Source of the DNA: a virus
Lineage: Duplodnaviria > Heunggongvirae > Uroviricota > Caudoviricetes
IMG/VR virus record: IMGVR_UViG_2651869782_000024
Reading direction: 5' to 3' (one strand)
DNA length: 6,524 nt
Notes under the pieces: model-generated
Database searches by the model: none
What the model was told of the DNA's origin: nothing
The model's input: the letters and a program-made list of their open reading frames with translations, nothing else
Translations under genes and position numbers: made by a program
Part shown: positions 40 to 6,524 of the stretch, one piece after another
How positions within the stretch are numbered: the stretch's first letter is position 1
Layout of the letters: each line of letters starts with the position of its first letter

Positions 40-297
40 CAAAGTCATCGGGCATTATCTGAACATAAAACACTATCAATAAGTTGGAGTCATTACCTAA
101 CATCCCTTCCTATTGAGAATGGGGTAAGCCTTTTAGTTCCACAGGCTATGGGGGGATATGATGTTGTGCTTGATATCAAAAAAGCAGGAAATGGCAGTAG
201 TTTTACTCTTTATGAACGTGTACCAGCATTAACGCCAAAAATTTTTGCTGATAGTGTTAATGCATGTAAATAATAGTTAATCCTGTCGTAACTCATG

Positions 298-325
298 AGC
301 CGCCTTTTGGGCGGCTTTGTTGTTT
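298..325 (+). terminator. Putative rho-independent terminator immediately upstream of the J ribosome-binding site
   Basis: Perfect 7-bp inverted repeat AGCCGCC (298..304) / GGCGGCT (310..316) with loop TTTTG, followed by TTGTTGTTT (317..325). The reverse complement has no downstream T-tract, so it is + strand only. GGAG at 328..331 lies 8 nt before the J ATG. Confidence 0.45.
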
Positions 326-339
326 ATGGAGTGTGAGGA

Positions 340-3300
340 ATGGGTAAAGGAAGCAGTAAGGGGCATACCCCGCGCGAAGCGAGGGACAACCTGAAGTCCA
401 CGCAGCTGCTGAGTGTGATCGATGCCATCAGCGAAGGGCCGGTTGAAGGTCCGGTGGACGGATTAAAAAGCGTGCTGCTGAACAGTACGCCGGTGCTGGA
501 CAGTGAGGGGAATACCAATATATCCGGTGTCACGGTGGTGTTCCGGGCAGGTGAGCAGGAGCAGACACCGCCGGAGGGATTTGAATCCTCCGGCTCCGAG
601 ACGGTGCTGGGTACGGAAGTGAAATATGACACGCCGATCACCCGGACCATCACGTCGGCAAACATCGACCGTCTGCGCTTTACCTTCGGTGTGCAGGCAC
701 TGGTGGAAACCACCTCAAAGGGGGACAGGAATCCGTCGGAAGTCCGCCTGCTGGTTCAGATCCAGCGTAACGGTGGCTGGGTGACGGAAAAAGACATCAC
801 CATTAAGGGCAAAACCACCTCGCAGTATCTGGCCTCGGTGGTGGTGGATAACCTGCCGCCGCGCCCGTTTAATATCCGGATGCGCAGAATGACGCCGGAC
901 AGCACCACAGACCAGCTGCAGAACAAAACGCTCTGGTCGTCATACACCGAAATCATCGATGTGAAACAGTGCTACCCGAACACGGCACTGGTCGGCGTGC
1001 AGGTGGACTCGGAACAGTTCGGCAGCCAGCAGGTGAGCCGTAATTATCATCTTCGCGGGCGCATTCTGCAGGTGCCGTCGAACTATAACCCGCAGACGCG
1101 GCAATACAGCGGTATCTGGGACGGAACGTTTAAGCCAGCATACAGCAACAACATGGCCTGGTGTCTGTGGGATATGCTGACCCATCCGCGCTACGGCATG
1201 GGGAAGCGTCTCGGTGCGGCGGATGTGGACAAATGGGCGCTGTATGTCATCGGCCAGAATTGCGACCAGTCGGTGCCGGATGGCTTTGGTGGCACGGAGC
1301 CGCGCATCACCTGTAATGCCTACCTGACCACACAGCGCAAGGCGTGGGATGTTCTCAGTGATTTCTGCTCGGCGATGCGCTGTATGCCGGTATGGAACGG
1401 GCAGACGCTGACGTTCGTGCAGGACCGACCGTCGGATAAGGTGTGGACCTATAACCGCAGTAATGTGGTGATGCCGGATGATGGCGCGCCGTTCCGCTAC
1501 AGCTTCAGTGCCCTGAAGGACCGTCATAATGCCGTTGAGGTGAACTGGATTGACCCGGATAACGGCTGGGAGACGGCGACAGAGCTTGTTGAAGATACGC
1601 AGGCCATTGCCCGTTACGGTCGTAACGTCACGAAGATGGATGCCTTTGGCTGTACCAGCCGGGGGCAGGCGCACCGCGCCGGGCTGTGGCTGATTAAAAC
1701 GGAACTGCTGGAAACGCAGACCGTGGACTTCAGCGTGGGTGCGGAAGGGCTTCGCCATGTACCGGGGGATGTCATTGAAATCTGCGATGATGACTATGCG
1801 GGTATCAGCACCGGCGGGCGCGTGCTGGCGGTGAACAGCCAGACCCGGACGCTGACGCTCGACCGTGAAATCACGCTGCCATCCTCCGGTACCACGCTGA
1901 TAAGCCTGGTTGACGGTCAGGGTAATCCGGTCAGCGTGGAGGTCCAGTCCGTCACCGACGGCGTGAAGGTGAAAGTGAGCCGTGTTCCTGACGGCGTTGC
2001 AGAATACAGCGTGTGGGGGCTGAAGCTGCCGACGCTGCGCCAGCGCCTGTTCCGCTGCGTGAGTATCCGTGAGAACGATGACGGCACGTATGCCATCACC
2101 GCCGTGCAGCATGTACCGGAGAAAGAAGCCATCGTGGATAACGGGGCGCACTTTGACGGTGACCAGAGCGGCACGGTGAATGGTGTCACGCCGCCAGCAG
2201 TGCAGCACCTGACCGCCGAAGTCACTGCAGACAGCGGGGAATATCAGGTGCTGGCGCGATGGGACACACCGAAGGTGGTGAAGGGCGTGAGCTTCCTGCT
2301 CCGTCTGACCGTAACAGCGGACGACGGCAGTGAGCGACTGGTCAGCACGGCCCGGACGACGGAAACCACATACCGCTTCACGCAACTGGCGCTGGGGAAC
2401 TACAGGCTGACAGTCCGGGCGGTAAATGCCCGGGGGCAGCAGGGCGATCCGGCGTCGGTATCGTTCCGGATTGCCGCACCGGCAGCACCGTCGAGGATTG
2501 AGCTGACGCCGGGCTATTTTCAGATAACCGCCACGCCGCATCTTGCTGTTTATGACCCGACGGTACAGTTTGAGTTCTGGTTCTCGGAAAAGCGGATTAC
2601 CGATATCAGGCAGGTTGAAACCACAGCCCGCTATCTTGGTACGGCGCTGTACTGGATAGCCGCCAGTATCAATATCAAACCGGGCCATGATTATTATTTT
2701 TACGTTCGCAGTGTGAACACCGTTGGCAAATCGGCATCCGTGGAGGCTGTCGGTCGGGCGAGCGATGATGCGGAAGGTTACCTGGATTTTTTCAAAGGAG
2801 AAATCGGGAAAACACATCTGGCCCAGGAGTTGTGGACGCAGATTGATAACGGTCAGCTTGCGCCGGACCTGGCTGAAATCAGGACGTCCATTACGAATGT
2901 CAGCAATGAAATCACGCAGACCGTCAATAAAAAACTGGAAGACCAGAGTGCGGCAATCCAGCAGATACAGAAAGTTCAGGTTGATACAAATAATAACCTG
3001 AACAGCATGTGGGCCGTGAAACTGCAGCAGATGAAGGACGGACGCCTTTATATTGCGGGTATCGGAGCCGGTATTGAGAATACGCCAGCAGGTATGCAGA
3101 GTCAGGTGCTTCTGGCTGCTGACCGGATTGCGATGATTAATCCTGCGAATGGCAACACAAAGCCGATGTTTGTTGGTCAGGGCGATCAGATATTCATGAA
3201 CGACGTGTTCCTGAAACGCCTGACGGCTCCGACCATTACCAGCGGCGGTAATCCTCCGGCATTTTCCCTGACACCGGACGGGCGGCTGACGGCGAAAAAT

Positions 3301-3819
3301 GCCGATATCAGCGGTAACGTGAATGCGAACTCCGGGACGCTCAACAACGTCACGATTAACGAGAACTGTCGGGTTCTGGGAAAATTGTCCGCCAACCAGA
3401 TTGAAGGCGATCTCGTTAAAACAGTGGGCAAAGCTTTCCCCCGGGACTCCCGTGCACCGGAACGGTGGCCATCAGGGACCATCACCGTCAGGGTTTATGA
3501 CGATCAGCCGTTTGACCGGCAGATTGTTATTCCGGCGGTGGCATTCAGCGGCGCTAAACATGAGCGGGAGAATAACGATATTTATTCGTCATGCCGCCTG
3601 ATAGTACGGAAAAACGGTGCTGAAATTTATAACCGTACCGCGCTGGATAATACGCTGATTTACAGTGGTGTTATTGATATGCCAGCTGGTCGCGGCCACA
3701 TGACGCTGGAGTTTTCGGTGTCAGCATGGCTGGTGAATAACTGGTATCCCACAGCAAGTATCAGCGATTTGCTGGTTGTGGTGATGAAGAAAGCCACCGC
3801 AGGCATCAGTATCAGCTGA
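340..3819 (+). CDS. J: Host specificity protein J (tail tip / central tail fibre), 1159 aa
   Basis: Complete ORF from the six-frame track. N-terminus [34 protein letters not shown]... and most of the length match phage lambda gpJ as I recall it. Position upstream of lom and stf matches lambda gene order. Shine-Dalgarno GGAG at 328..331. Confidence 0.95.
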
Positions 3820-3838
3820 ATTTTATAACCCATATACG

Positions 3839-3862
3839 GGCGCCAGAAATGGCGCCTTTTTT
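3839..3862 (+). terminator. Rho-independent terminator downstream of J
   Basis: GGCGCCA (3839..3845), loop GAAA, TGGCGCC (3850..3856), then TTTTTT (3857..3862). Starts 20 nt after the J stop codon (TGA 3817..3819). Confidence 0.6.
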
Positions 3863-3886
3863 ATTGCAGAAAAGCGAGAGGTAATT

Positions 3887-4486
3887 ATGCGTAAAGTTTG
3901 TGCAGTCATTTTGTCCGCAGCCATCTGTCTGTCCGTATCCGGTGCGCCTGCATGGGCGTCTGAACATCAGTCCACACTGAGCGCGGGGTATCTTCATGCC
4001 CGTACGAACGCTCCCGGCAGCGATAATCTGAACGGGATTAACGTGAAATACCGTTATGAGTTTACGGACGCGCTGGGGCTGATTACGTCCTTCAGTTATG
4101 CCAATGCTGAGGATGAGCAAAAAACGCACTACAGCGATACCCGCTGGCATGAAGATTCCGTGCGTAACCGCTGGTTCAGCGTGATGGCGGGGCCGTCTGT
4201 ACGCGTGAATGAATGGTTCAGCGCGTATTCGATGGCGGGTGTGGCTTACAGCCGTGTGTCGACTTTCTCCGGGGATTATCTCCGCGTAACTGACAACAAG
4301 GGGAAAACGCACGATGTGCTGACCGGAAGTGATGACGGTCGCCACAGCAACACGTCTCTGGCGTGGGGGGCTGGCGTGCAGTTTAACCCGACCGAATCCG
4401 TGACCATTGACCTTGCTTATGAAGGTTCCGGTAGTGGCGACTGGCGAACGGATGCATTTATTGTTGGTATCGGATACCGTTTCTGA
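3887..4486 (+). CDS. lom: Lom-family outer membrane protein (Ail/Lom/OmpX/PagC/Rck 8-strand beta-barrel family), 199 aa
   Basis: Complete ORF. N-terminal signal peptide MRKVCAVILSAAICLSVSGAPAWA with likely cleavage after AWA. Conserved family motifs GINVKYRYE, SVMAGP, AYEGSGSGDWRTD and a C-terminal ...GIGYRF ending in Phe, typical of outer-membrane beta-barrels. Shine-Dalgarno GAGAGG at 3876..3881, 5 nt before the ATG. Sits between J and stf as in lambda. Confidence 0.9.
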   Translation: MRKVCAVILSAAICLSVSGAPAWASEHQSTLSAGYLHARTNAPGSDNLNGINVKYRYEFTDALGLITSFSYANAEDEQKTHYSDTRWHEDSVRNRWFSVMAGPSVRVNEWFSAYSMAGVAYSRVSTFSGDYLRVTDNKGKTHDVLTGSDDGRHSNTSLAWGAGVQFNPTESVTIDLAYEGSGSGDWRTDAFIVGIGYRF

Positions 4487-4591
4487 CAACAGACGCCGAT
4501 TTATCTTCTGTAAATATTGTTATGATACGCAGGTTCATCCACTTTATGGGGTGAACTGCGTTTGAGGAAACGTAAAGTTACACTGTCCTGA

Positions 4592-4623
4592 AGCCCGTGG
4601 CGTCACTGCTGCGGGCTTTTTTT
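4592..4623 (+). terminator. Rho-independent terminator downstream of lom
   Basis: AGCCCG (4592..4597) pairs with CGGGCT (4612..4617); the stem can extend with G-U wobbles around a 4-nt loop. Followed by TTTTTTT (4617..4623). Located between the lom stop (4486) and the stf start (4638). Confidence 0.6.
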
Positions 4624-4637
4624 ATTGGTGGAAAAGT

Positions 4638-6524
4638 ATGACAGTAAAAATTTCTGGCGTGCTTAAAGATGGCACAGGAAAACCAGTACAGAACTGCACC
4701 ATTGTGCTGAAGGCCAGACGAACCAGCAGCACGGTGGTGGTGAACACGGTGGCCTCTGAAAATCCGGATGAAGCCGGACGTTACAGCATGGATGTTGAGC
4801 ATGGTCAGTACAGCGTCACCCTGCTGGTTGAAGGTTTTCCGCCTTCACATGCCGGGACCATTACCGTCTATGAAGGTTCCAGACCAGGTACGCTGAATGA
4901 TTTTCTCGGTGCCATGACGGAGGATGATGTCCGACCGGAGGCACTGCGCCGCTTTGAGCAGATGGTGGAAGAGGTGTCACGTAACGCCTCCGCGGTTGCA
5001 CAGAATACGGCAGCCGCGAAAAAATCAGCCAGCGATGCCAGTGCATCAGCCAGCGAGGCGGCAACTCATGCAACCGATGCTGCAGCCTCAGCACGTGCCG
5101 CCAGCACGTCAGCCGGACAGGCCGCGTCGTCGGCTCAGTCAGCGTCTTCCAGCGCAGGAACGGCATCGACAAAGGCCCGTGAAGCAGCAAAAAGTGCTGC
5201 TGCTGCAGAGTCATCAAAAAGCGCGGCAGCTACCAGCGCCAGTGCCGCGAAAACGTCAGAAACGAATGCCGCAGCGTCACAACAATCAGCAGCCACTTCT
5301 GCATCCACCGCGACCACGAAAGCGTCAGAAGCAGCCACTTCAGCACGGGATGCGTCGGCTTCAAAAGAGGCGGCAAAATCATCAGAAACGAACGCAGCCT
5401 CGAGCGCCAGCAGCGCAGCTTCCTCGGCAACGGCGGCAGCAAATTCTGCGAAGGCGGCAAAAACGTCCGAGACGAACGCCAGGTCTTCTGAAACGGCAGC
5501 GGGACAGAGCGCCTCAGCTGCGGCAGACTCAAAAACAGCGGCTGCATTATCTGCCAGTGCCGCGTCAACAAGTGCCGGGCAGGCCTCAGCCAGTGCCACC
5601 GCCGCCGGAAAATCGGCAGAAAGCGCCGCATCATCCGCTTCAACAGCCACAACGAAGGCTGGCAAAGCCACTGAGCAAGCCACTGCAGCAGCGAGGTCTG
5701 CTTCTGCAGCAAAAACCTCTGAAACAAATGCAAAGACTTCAGCAGACAATGCTGCTTCCTCTAAGGCGGCAGCCGCATCGTCAGCCAGTTCAGCGGCGTC
5801 ATCGGCATCATCTGCGTCTGCTTCAAAAGATGAGGCGACCAGACAGGCGTCAGCAGCAAAGGGCAGCGCCACGACGGCATCCACGAAGGCGACAGAGGCA
5901 GCTGGCAGTGCGACGGCGGCAGCTCAGAGCAAAAGTACGGCGGAATCCGCGGCAACGCGCGCCGAGACAGCGGCAAAACGGGCAGAGGATATTGCATCCG
6001 CCGTGGCGCTTGAGGATGCGAGCACGACGAAAAAGGGGATAGTACAGCTCAGCAGTGCGACCAACAGCACTTCCGAGTCACTGGCGGCAACGCCAAAAGC
6101 GGTTAAGGCGGTAATGGGTGAAACGAACAAGAAAGCGCCCTTAAATAGTCCTGCACTGACCGGAACGCCAACAACACCAACTGCGCGACAGGGAACGAAT
6201 AATACCCAAATCGCAAGCACGGCTTATGTTATGGCTGCGATCGCTGCCCTCGTGGACTCGTCGCCTGACGCACTGAATACGCTGAACGAGCTGGCTGCGG
6301 CGTTGGGCAACGACCCGAATTTTGCGACCACCATGACTAGCGCGCTTGCGGGTAAGCAACCGAAAGATGCCACCCTGACGGCGCTGGCCGGGCTTGCTAC
6401 TGCGGCAGACAGGTTTCCGTATTTTACGGGGAATGATGTTGCCAGTCTGGCAACCCTGACAAAAGTTGGGCGGGATATTCTTGCGAAATCGACCGTTGCC
6501 GCCGTTATCGAATACCTCGGTTTA
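4638..6524 (+). CDS. stf: Side tail fibre protein Stf, N-terminal 629 codons (3' end beyond window)
   Basis: ATG at 4638 preceded by GGTGG (4627..4631). I translated the frame by hand and it is open for all 629 codons to the window edge, which is why the track (which needs a stop) does not list it. N-terminus MTVKISGVLKDGTGKPVQNCTI... and the later ...DALNTLNELAAALGNDP...GKQPKDATLTALAG... segment match lambda Stf (orf-401 region) as I recall it. Confidence 0.9.
   Translation, partial: MTVKISGVLKDGTGKPVQNCTIVLKARRTSSTVVVNTVASENPDEAGRYSMDVEHGQYSVTLLVEGFPPSHAGTITVYEGSRPGTLNDFLGAMTEDDVRPEALRRFEQMVEEVSRNASAVAQNTAAAKKSASDASASASEAATHATDAAASARAASTSAGQAASSAQSASSSAGTASTKAREAAKSAAAAESSKSAAATSASAAKTSETNAAASQQSAATSASTATTKASEAATSARDASASKEAAKSSETNAASSASSAASSATAAANSAKAAKTSETNARSSETAAGQSASAAADSKTAAALSASAASTSAGQASASATAAGKSAESAASSASTATTKAGKATEQATAAARSASAAKTSETNAKTSADNAASSKAAAASSASSAASSASSASASKDEATRQASAAKGSATTASTKATEAAGSATAAAQSKSTAESAATRAETAAKRAEDIASAVALEDASTTKKGIVQLSSATNSTSESLAATPKAVKAVMGETNKKAPLNSPALTGTPTTPTARQGTNNTQIASTAYVMAAIAALVDSSPDALNTLNELAAALGNDPNFATTMTSALAGKQPKDATLTALAGLATAADRFPYFTGNDVASLATLTKVGRDILAKSTVAAVIEYLGL
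4998..5984 (+). repeat. Uninterrupted array of 47 heptads (21-nt period) encoding an Ala/Ser-rich probable coiled-coil shaft within Stf
   Basis: Translating the stf frame in 7-residue blocks from 4998 gives AQNTAAA, KKSASDA, SASASEA ... KTSETNA ... ETAAKRA with Ala at position 7 in all 47 blocks and Ser at position 3 in most. KTSETNA/KSSETNA recurs at 5250, 5376, 5460 and 5712, spacings that are all multiples of 42 nt. Confidence 0.75.

Follow-up and report, generated by a model that had tools for sequence, protein, structure and literature searches.

Gene J of the stretch analysed here, 6,524 nucleotides (nt) of lambdoid phage or prophage DNA (virus record IMGVR_UViG_2651869782_000024, in the following called the window), encodes a tail-tip protein of 1159 amino acids (aa) that, judged by alignment, is a recombinational mosaic of four parts. 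A lambda-type hub and fibronectin type III (FNIII) region is joined to a long shaft with an upper beta-prism, to a conserved lower beta-prism and to a receptor-binding domain (RBD) of the type found in the engineered tail 1A2 and in O157 prophages. Because the 97%-identical 1A2 tail uses the porin OmpC, the RBD of the window is predicted to bind OmpC and most likely not the lambda receptor LamB. The whole explanation, i.e. a four-part mosaic J with a predicted OmpC-type tip, is considered well probable. All coordinates refer to the whole stretch and all aa numbers to the J protein of the window, for which the following parts were delimited:

340 to 3819, plus strand: gene J, central tail fibre or tip attachment protein, 1159 aa, intact open reading frame (ORF), based on the ORF list, NF049904, six gpJ Pfam domains and the match to UTI89
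340 to 2799, plus strand: lambda-type N-terminal two thirds of J, aa 1-820, with hub domains, FNIII-A and two immunoglobulin (Ig)/FNIII domains, based on lambda identity and Pfam
2800 to 3159, plus strand: diverged fibre-shaft module of J, aa 821-940, long-form alpha-helical shaft and upper beta-prism, based on alignment and the lambda domain map
3160 to 3345, plus strand: conserved lower beta-prism block of J, aa 941-1002, based on alignment to all J proteins compared
3346 to 3816, plus strand: RBD module of J, aa 1003-1159, 1A2/O157-prophage type, predicted OmpC binder, based on PF12421 and alignment

The J protein was matched by the NCBIfam profile NF049904 (lambda_TipJ) with 2383.8 bits at a cutoff of 1950, residues 1-1159 covering the profile positions 1-1163. 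Six gpJ-specific Pfam domains were found (FNIII-A_GpJ, Phage-tail_3, Ig_J, Ig_J_second, Phage_Tail_Tip and Ig_GpJ_C), each above the gathering score and with an E value of at most 1e-30, and their order is the one expected for a lambda-type tip protein. The genomic context corresponds to a lambda-type J as well, with lom (3887-4486) and stf (from 4638) lying downstream; the near-identical UTI89 locus carries H-M-L-K-I upstream of J, and the upstream side of the window itself is cut by IS1. The closest RefSeq relative is WP_000515773.1 of UTI89 ('phage attachment tail tip protein J'), which is identical at 1158 of the 1159 residues, the single substitution being a serine at position 800 in the window compared to a phenylalanine in UTI89. 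For aa 801-1159, sequence matches were obtained to PDB 9wca ('A8 gpJ 713', E = 1.5e-130) and to lambda gpJ713 (8xcj/8xck, E = 7e-110). Since the sequence matches to 9wca and 8xcj show E values of at most 1e-108, the fold was taken as settled; an AlphaFold2 single-sequence model of aa 790-1159 was unusable (mean predicted local distance difference test score of 38, predicted TM-score of 0.33) and gave a mere hint of a helix at about aa 801-897. Based on the 98% identity to lambda over aa 1-820 and on the lambda structures determined by cryo-electron microscopy (cryo-EM), we infer that J would be a trimeric tail-tip or central-fibre protein, through which the tail tip would open once the receptor is bound.

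The identity to lambda J (reference from NC_001416, segment values from the multiple alignment of J proteins) changes abruptly along the protein. It amounts to 98% for aa 1-820 (801/820), drops to 36% for aa 821-940 (43/120), returns to 90% for aa 941-1002 (56/62) and decreases again to 45% for aa 1003-1159 (70/157), a heterogeneity between the segments that is beyond chance (chi-square p = 2e-107). An earlier note, made from the letters of the window alone, had described such a course, with close similarity to lambda up to near nt 2795, divergence, return to a conserved block and renewed divergence. The break was located right after aa 820 (nt 2797-2799), and the conserved block (PMFV...NANSGTL) was present. 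The claim that roughly the last 150 residues diverge holds true in comparison to lambda (157 aa), whereas with J proteins of the phage 21 type as the reference the junction is displaced to about aa 1033. As the note had also stated, the product is longer than the lambda protein (1159 vs 1132 aa); the excess of 27 residues results from insertions of 21 residues (aa 836-856) and 7 residues (aa 860-866), from which a single residue missing in the RBD has to be subtracted. In the alignment with lambda and other lambdoid J proteins the C-terminus is far from identical to lambda, with 44-45% in the RBD, and the proposed change of receptor by a swapped C-terminal module is supported by an RBD about 97% identical to that of the OmpC-using 1A2. 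Altogether, every element of the earlier sequence observation was confirmed. Two points go beyond it, namely that the RBD module is common and not unusual, and that the modular exchange has already been published (PMC6646904).

The mosaic structure was equally observable in the DNA, for which the identity was determined in sliding 120-nt windows against lambda and its relatives, including J of O157 Shiga toxin (Stx) phages:

nt 340-2740: 91-98% to lambda, about 60-89% to O157 Stx-phage J
nt 2740-3220: 28-74% to lambda, 87-96% to phage 21 and mEp460, 92-99% to VT1-Sakai J
nt 3220-3339: 88% to lambda, conserved across all J types compared
nt 3340-3819: 49-61% to lambda, 93-99% to VT1-Sakai and Stx2a_WGPS2

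From about nt 2500 onward, J of VT1-Sakai is near-identical to the window, with 97-99% DNA identity over the shaft module. The segment aa 1-820, 98% identical to lambda, is only about 73% identical to J of the O157 Stx phages. Other phages carry the same parts in different combinations. In phage 21 and mEp460 the long shaft occurs together with an A8-like RBD, which shows 65% identity to that of the window. Phage 2G7b combines the short lambda shaft with an RBD of the window type (97%) in a protein of 1131 aa, and in lambda h434 it is the 434 RBD that is found on a short shaft. By these comparisons, J modules assort independently in nature.

The lower-prism block (aa 941-1002) shows 81-100% aa identity to every J compared, and also contains the junction of published chimeras (lambda aa 964, corresponding to aa 992 in the window). 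It is an obvious homologous crossover site, for natural as well as for engineered exchange. An alignment of 1207 J homologs led to the description of lambda J 960-1132 as 'an evolutionary module', which is exchanged by recombination separately from the remainder of the protein (Maddamsetti et al. 2018, PMC6646904). In the same study, indel hotspots of J were located at the lambda residues 1012, 1048-1049, 1077-1078 and 1107.

A smaller irregularity was observed in the N-terminal two thirds of the gene. A patch of about 480 nt (nt 1420-1899) showed 96-97% identity to UTI89, while the remaining DNA of J was 100% identical; within this patch, nt 1660-1899 were 100% identical to phage vB_EcoS-640R1. 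The pattern points to gene conversion over a short tract, with J alleles residing together as the partners.

On the lambda domain map, the shaft module (aa 821-940) corresponds to the alpha-helical shaft (residues 809-861) plus the upper CSF, i.e. to the shaft and the upper beta-prism, while aa 941-1002 represent the lower prism and aa 1003-1159 the RBD. For the C-terminal part of lambda gpJ, cryo-EM revealed, among other parts, two FNIII domains, the alpha-helical shaft and an Ig-like RBD, of which four bottom loops enter LamB (PMC11101478). The domain order of the window protein is identical to that of lambda gpJ (P03749; PDB 8iyk, and 8xcj/8xck with LamB), with hub, two FNIII domains, helical shaft, beta-prism and Ig-like RBD. 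In contrast, the lambda shaft with the upper prism is 28 aa shorter, and the lambda receptor is LamB, compared to the OmpC predicted here. The 28 extra residues sit in the shaft between the lambda residues 835 and 839. At 36% aa identity to lambda and 97% to phage 21, mEp460 and 640R1, the shaft module belongs to the long form. A length of 28 residues equals four heptads, and this length together with the visible local spacing points to a shaft that would be four heptads longer than that of lambda. A heptad-register scan of aa 809-899 gave no dominant register, the hydrophobic fraction at the a and d positions being 0.27-0.42.

The RBD itself was assigned by Pfam PF12421 (Ig_GpJ_C, gpJ C-terminal receptor-binding domain), which covers the last 131 aa (1029-1159) with E = 2e-38. 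Compared to other J proteins, the RBD is 97% identical to both 1A2 and Stx2a_WGPS2, 65% to phage 21, 61% to A8, 44-45% to lambda and 43% to 434. It thus does not group with the LamB-binding lambda RBD (matched at lambda J about 975-1132; 44-45% of the aa and 49-61% of the DNA), and falls into the 1A2 type, with identity at 149 of the 154 readable positions of aa 1003-1159 (about 97%). The number of readable positions is given by the source, since the 1A2 tail was recovered by three-frame tblastn with the window protein from a machine-read supplementary text with frame-breaking errors.

The function of the 1A2 tail is known from work in which gpJ C-termini taken from natural prophages were joined to lambda J at its residue 964 (Brödel et al., Nature 2024, PMC11338833). 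Two recipients served for the screening of these chimeras, one lacking lamB and one lacking both lamB and ompC but supplied with OmpC variants from plasmids, and the 1A2 fusion redirected lambda particles to OmpC, not LamB. A second fusion, A8, uses OmpC of both MG1655 and EDL933, whereas 1A2 delivers via EDL933 but not via MG1655 OmpC; jointly, A8 and 1A2 covered 21 of 23 OmpC variants (PMC11338833). With OmpC use observed for the 97%-identical 1A2, it is most likely that the RBD of the window allele binds OmpC, not LamB. Delivery into UTI89 was dropped as support for 1A2, the text of PMC11338833 naming A8 and its legends and methods naming 1A2.

Concerning the architecture, the 1A2 chimera (lambda J 1-964 with a natural E. 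coli prophage C-terminus) shares with the window the RBD and a fusion point within the conserved block, but carries the short lambda shaft in place of the long one; phage 2G7b naturally shares this architecture of 1A2. A8 is a solved OmpC-binding relative with the same RBD fold, for which PDB 9wcb contains A8 gpJ713 deposited with three OmpC chains. Its RBD is 82% identical to that of phage 21, and both differ from the window RBD (61-65% identity) by indels at two loops that match the lambda hotspots 1012 and 1048-1049. Phage 21 and mEp460 have in common with the window the long shaft and, in addition, the first approximately 30 residues of the RBD. J of phage 434, as carried by lambda h434, belongs to the same family and is the classical OmpC-using lambdoid tip on a lambda-type N-terminus, as it is predicted for the window. 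Unlike the window J, it has a short shaft, other loop lengths and an RBD of 43% identity, and represents an independent OmpC-binding lineage.

A comparison of the published C-terminal 1A2 DNA with nt 3246-3819 of the window showed an identity of 67%, compared to about 97% for the protein, with differences nearly all at third codon positions. Probably the listed 1A2 DNA is recoded, or the two sequences reflect old synonymous divergence. The methods of PMC11338833 state that 1A2 was amplified from a strain, and the A8 DNA looks natural. In the literature, no direct receptor data were found for the relatives PhiR55_1, PhiR46_1, 640R1 and the long-tailed Stx2a phages. The SNIPE paper with the PhiR panel gives a dependence on ManYZ and no outer-membrane receptor, and the BASEL papers and a 2026 receptor-prediction preprint do not cover the lambdoid J RBD types.

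Several points weigh against a functional tip with the receptor range of 1A2. The first one concerns expression. Since the UTI89 homology starts at nt 98, right after an IS1 end, an IS1 element was placed 242 bp upstream of J, where it breaks a small ORF that separates I from J. The element may have a polar effect on late transcription of J, lom and stf, and J may be silent in the present host. Together with the frameshifted J of VT1-Sakai, by which decay of J in prophages is documented, this could be taken to mean that J belongs to a defective prophage and is itself in decay, its C-terminus having no present function. However, the ORF of 3480 nt is intact and one residue away from J of UTI89, the same RBD is 97-99% conserved in the inducible, plaque-forming phages 640R1, PhiR55_1 and 2G7b, and the insertion concerns the expression in the present host and not the function of the protein. 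A pseudogene was therefore rejected as unlikely, on account of the intact ORF and of the conservation of the RBD in plaque-forming phages.

The remaining points concern the specificity of the RBD. The window differs from 1A2 by about five substitutions in variable loops (HERENND vs HEKEHTD, AGRGH vs AGHGH, GISIS vs GITIS), and 2-3 residues of the 1A2 sequence are uncertain due to the machine-read source. The HERENND/HEKEHTD cluster adjoins the lambda residues 1048-1049, an indel hotspot in the diversification of J lineages, and four substitutions were enough for lambda J to gain a receptor (PMC6646904). Moreover, 1A2 was assayed on the short lambda shaft, whereas J of the window has the long one. 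Because the substitutions lie in variable loops, the range of OmpC variants accepted by the window allele may differ from that of 1A2. A further step would be that the allele binds another outer-membrane protein, e.g. OmpF or another porin, or a narrow set of OmpC unlike that of 1A2. In favour of this, the differences are concentrated in two loops, HE(R/K)E(N/H)(N/T)D, which is the most variable one, and AG(R/H)GH, the porin specificity of lambda J can shift with four substitutions, and 1A2 itself tells EDL933 OmpC from MG1655 OmpC. On the other hand, natural alleles mix the same residues, with RENND and GHG in 640R1 and REHTD and GHG in Stx2a_WGPS2 and 2G7b, which looks like polymorphism within one type, and there is no pointer to another receptor. 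Another receptor, or a narrow OmpC range unlike that of 1A2, on account of the loops is accordingly regarded as rather doubtful.

A more speculative idea, to which little credence is given, is that the long shaft and the loop residues of its own (RENND, GRG) provide the window protein with a functionally distinct tip, e.g. one that stands off further, is triggered at another threshold or prefers OmpC variants of B2 or extraintestinal pathogenic E. coli (ExPEC). If this were the case, not only the RBD but also the shaft module would tune the host range; published tests of a shaft length variant were not found in the literature. It is highly improbable that the tip still binds LamB and that its divergence is drift inside a LamB-binding family, since, despite the shared fold family PF12421 and loop lengths that are nearly those of lambda (a single one-residue deletion), the RBD is just 44-45% identical to lambda, the 97%-identical 1A2 tail is functional in cells without lamB, its activity depending on which OmpC variant is supplied (PMC11338833), and lambda RBD DNA forms a discrete type in E. 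coli genomes (96-98 of 5426, all at least 99% identical); this reading was rejected based on the low RBD identity and the activity of 1A2 without lamB.

For the preferred OmpC-type tip, a mechanism can be proposed by analogy to the triggering of infection seen for lambda gpJ by cryo-EM (PMC11101478). The bottom loops of the three RBDs in the trimeric tip would enter a porin trimer of the outer membrane, most likely OmpC. The RBD bases would then move apart and the prism would twist, followed by a flip and partial refolding of the helical shaft, which would relay the signal upward. Finally, the FNIII strings would let go, and the hub and the tail tip would open. In this scheme, the receptor would be the sole difference from lambda.

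The frequency of the individual modules was determined in complete E. coli genomes (n = 5426), with nt 3340-3819 as the query for the RBD and a query coverage of at least 80%. The window RBD was found in 3350 of the 5426 genomes, nearly all matches showing an identity of at least 90%, and the long shaft (nt 2800-3100) in 3546. The DNA of the lambda RBD was detected in 96-98 genomes; its top-listed matches were laboratory DE3 and K-12 lysogens. With an identity of at least 99% throughout, the lambda-type RBD is a tight DNA cluster that excludes the window sequence. In a phage collection, 52 records contained an RBD of 95-100% identity, among them numerous O157 Stx2a phages as well as PPompW prophages. 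Altogether, the long-shaft, 1A2-type tip is predominant among E. coli prophages (about 62-65% of the complete genomes), whereas the LamB-binding tip of lambda is the exception, with about 2% of the complete genomes, mostly laboratory lysogens.

This prevalence is in line with published work in which lambda particles were retargeted, by way of such C-termini, to OmpC, a porin with reliable expression in the gut. The finding is correct, yet already known with regard to both the sequence (RefSeq, UTI89) and the phenomenon (module exchange, 2018). Its value as a discovery is small, as the protein is annotated in RefSeq, is one residue away from gpJ of UTI89 and represents the commonest J type of E. 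coli. As an annotation label for J of the window, 'OmpC-type (predicted)' would be suited. Among O157 prophages, J of the window type is also found in the form of a pseudogene: in VT1-Sakai (Sp15, AP000400; L008 1000-4472), which shares the C-terminal third of J with the window (92-99% DNA identity from about nt 2500), the gene is annotated as two overlapping truncated coding sequences, i.e. as a frameshifted J.

Two further genes were identified downstream of J:

3887 to 4486, plus strand: lom, Ail/Lom outer-membrane beta-barrel protein, 199 codons (Pfam PF06316, E = 3e-126; PHROG 108, Lom)
4638 to 6524, plus strand: 5' part of stf, side tail fibre gene, which continues beyond the end of the window (PHROG tail fibre families, E values down to 2e-165)

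The gene lom is the one usually found 3' of J and is separate from the fibre, while stf is a second host-range determinant of the same tail. Its counterpart in UTI89 is annotated as a prophage tail fiber N-terminal domain protein. From nt 98 to 6109, the window is 99.0% identical to the DNA of the UTI89 prophage, with the same gene order of small ORF, J, lom and stf, and it was matched in many other ExPEC genomes. The UTI89 prophage adjoins a truncated ompW. Judging from this homology, J, lom and stf of the window are distal tail genes from a lambdoid E. coli prophage like the one integrated at ompW in UTI89. In contrast to the window, the UTI89 locus has no IS1 upstream of J, and its stf diverges after nt 6109.

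The first 97 nt of the window are a terminal IS1 end, finishing with ...GGAGTCATTACC, which is 100% identical to the IS1A/IS1B ends in thousands of E. coli records; the homology to the UTI89 prophage begins exactly at nt 98. A similar arrangement of IS1 and J was observed in strain 3045 (NZ_CP103570.1), matched in two pieces with 98.6% identity. The adjoining nt 98-273 on the plus strand represent the 3' part of a small ORF of low GC content (about 39-46%) located between the tail genes I and J (full ORF L005 5838-6176), which IS1 cuts at about codon 55. In UTI89, the product of this ORF is a hypothetical protein of 112 aa (WP_001332187.1) that belongs to PHROG 914, a family of unassigned function. 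Lambda and phage 21 have a gap of 60 nt at this position, without the small ORF, which looks like a moron.

Terminator-like GC-rich hairpins with T-runs were found on the plus strand at 297-317 (upstream of J), 3838-3857 (between J and lom) and 4590-4619 (after lom), the total count being equal to the shuffled expectation (4 found vs 4.0 expected). Just past the first hairpin, a stretch of 37 nt immediately preceding the J start (nt 309-345) shows 86-89% conservation in lambda and phage 21, and for phage 21 the record annotates a terminator at the matching place before J.

In stf, the repetitive, alanine-rich N-terminal part gives rise to long spurious ORFs in other frames (e.g. 4924-6042 on the plus and 5135-5884 on the minus strand). 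Since the identity of stf to UTI89 stops at nt 6109, the gene has a mosaic junction of its own and a distal part unlike that of UTI89.

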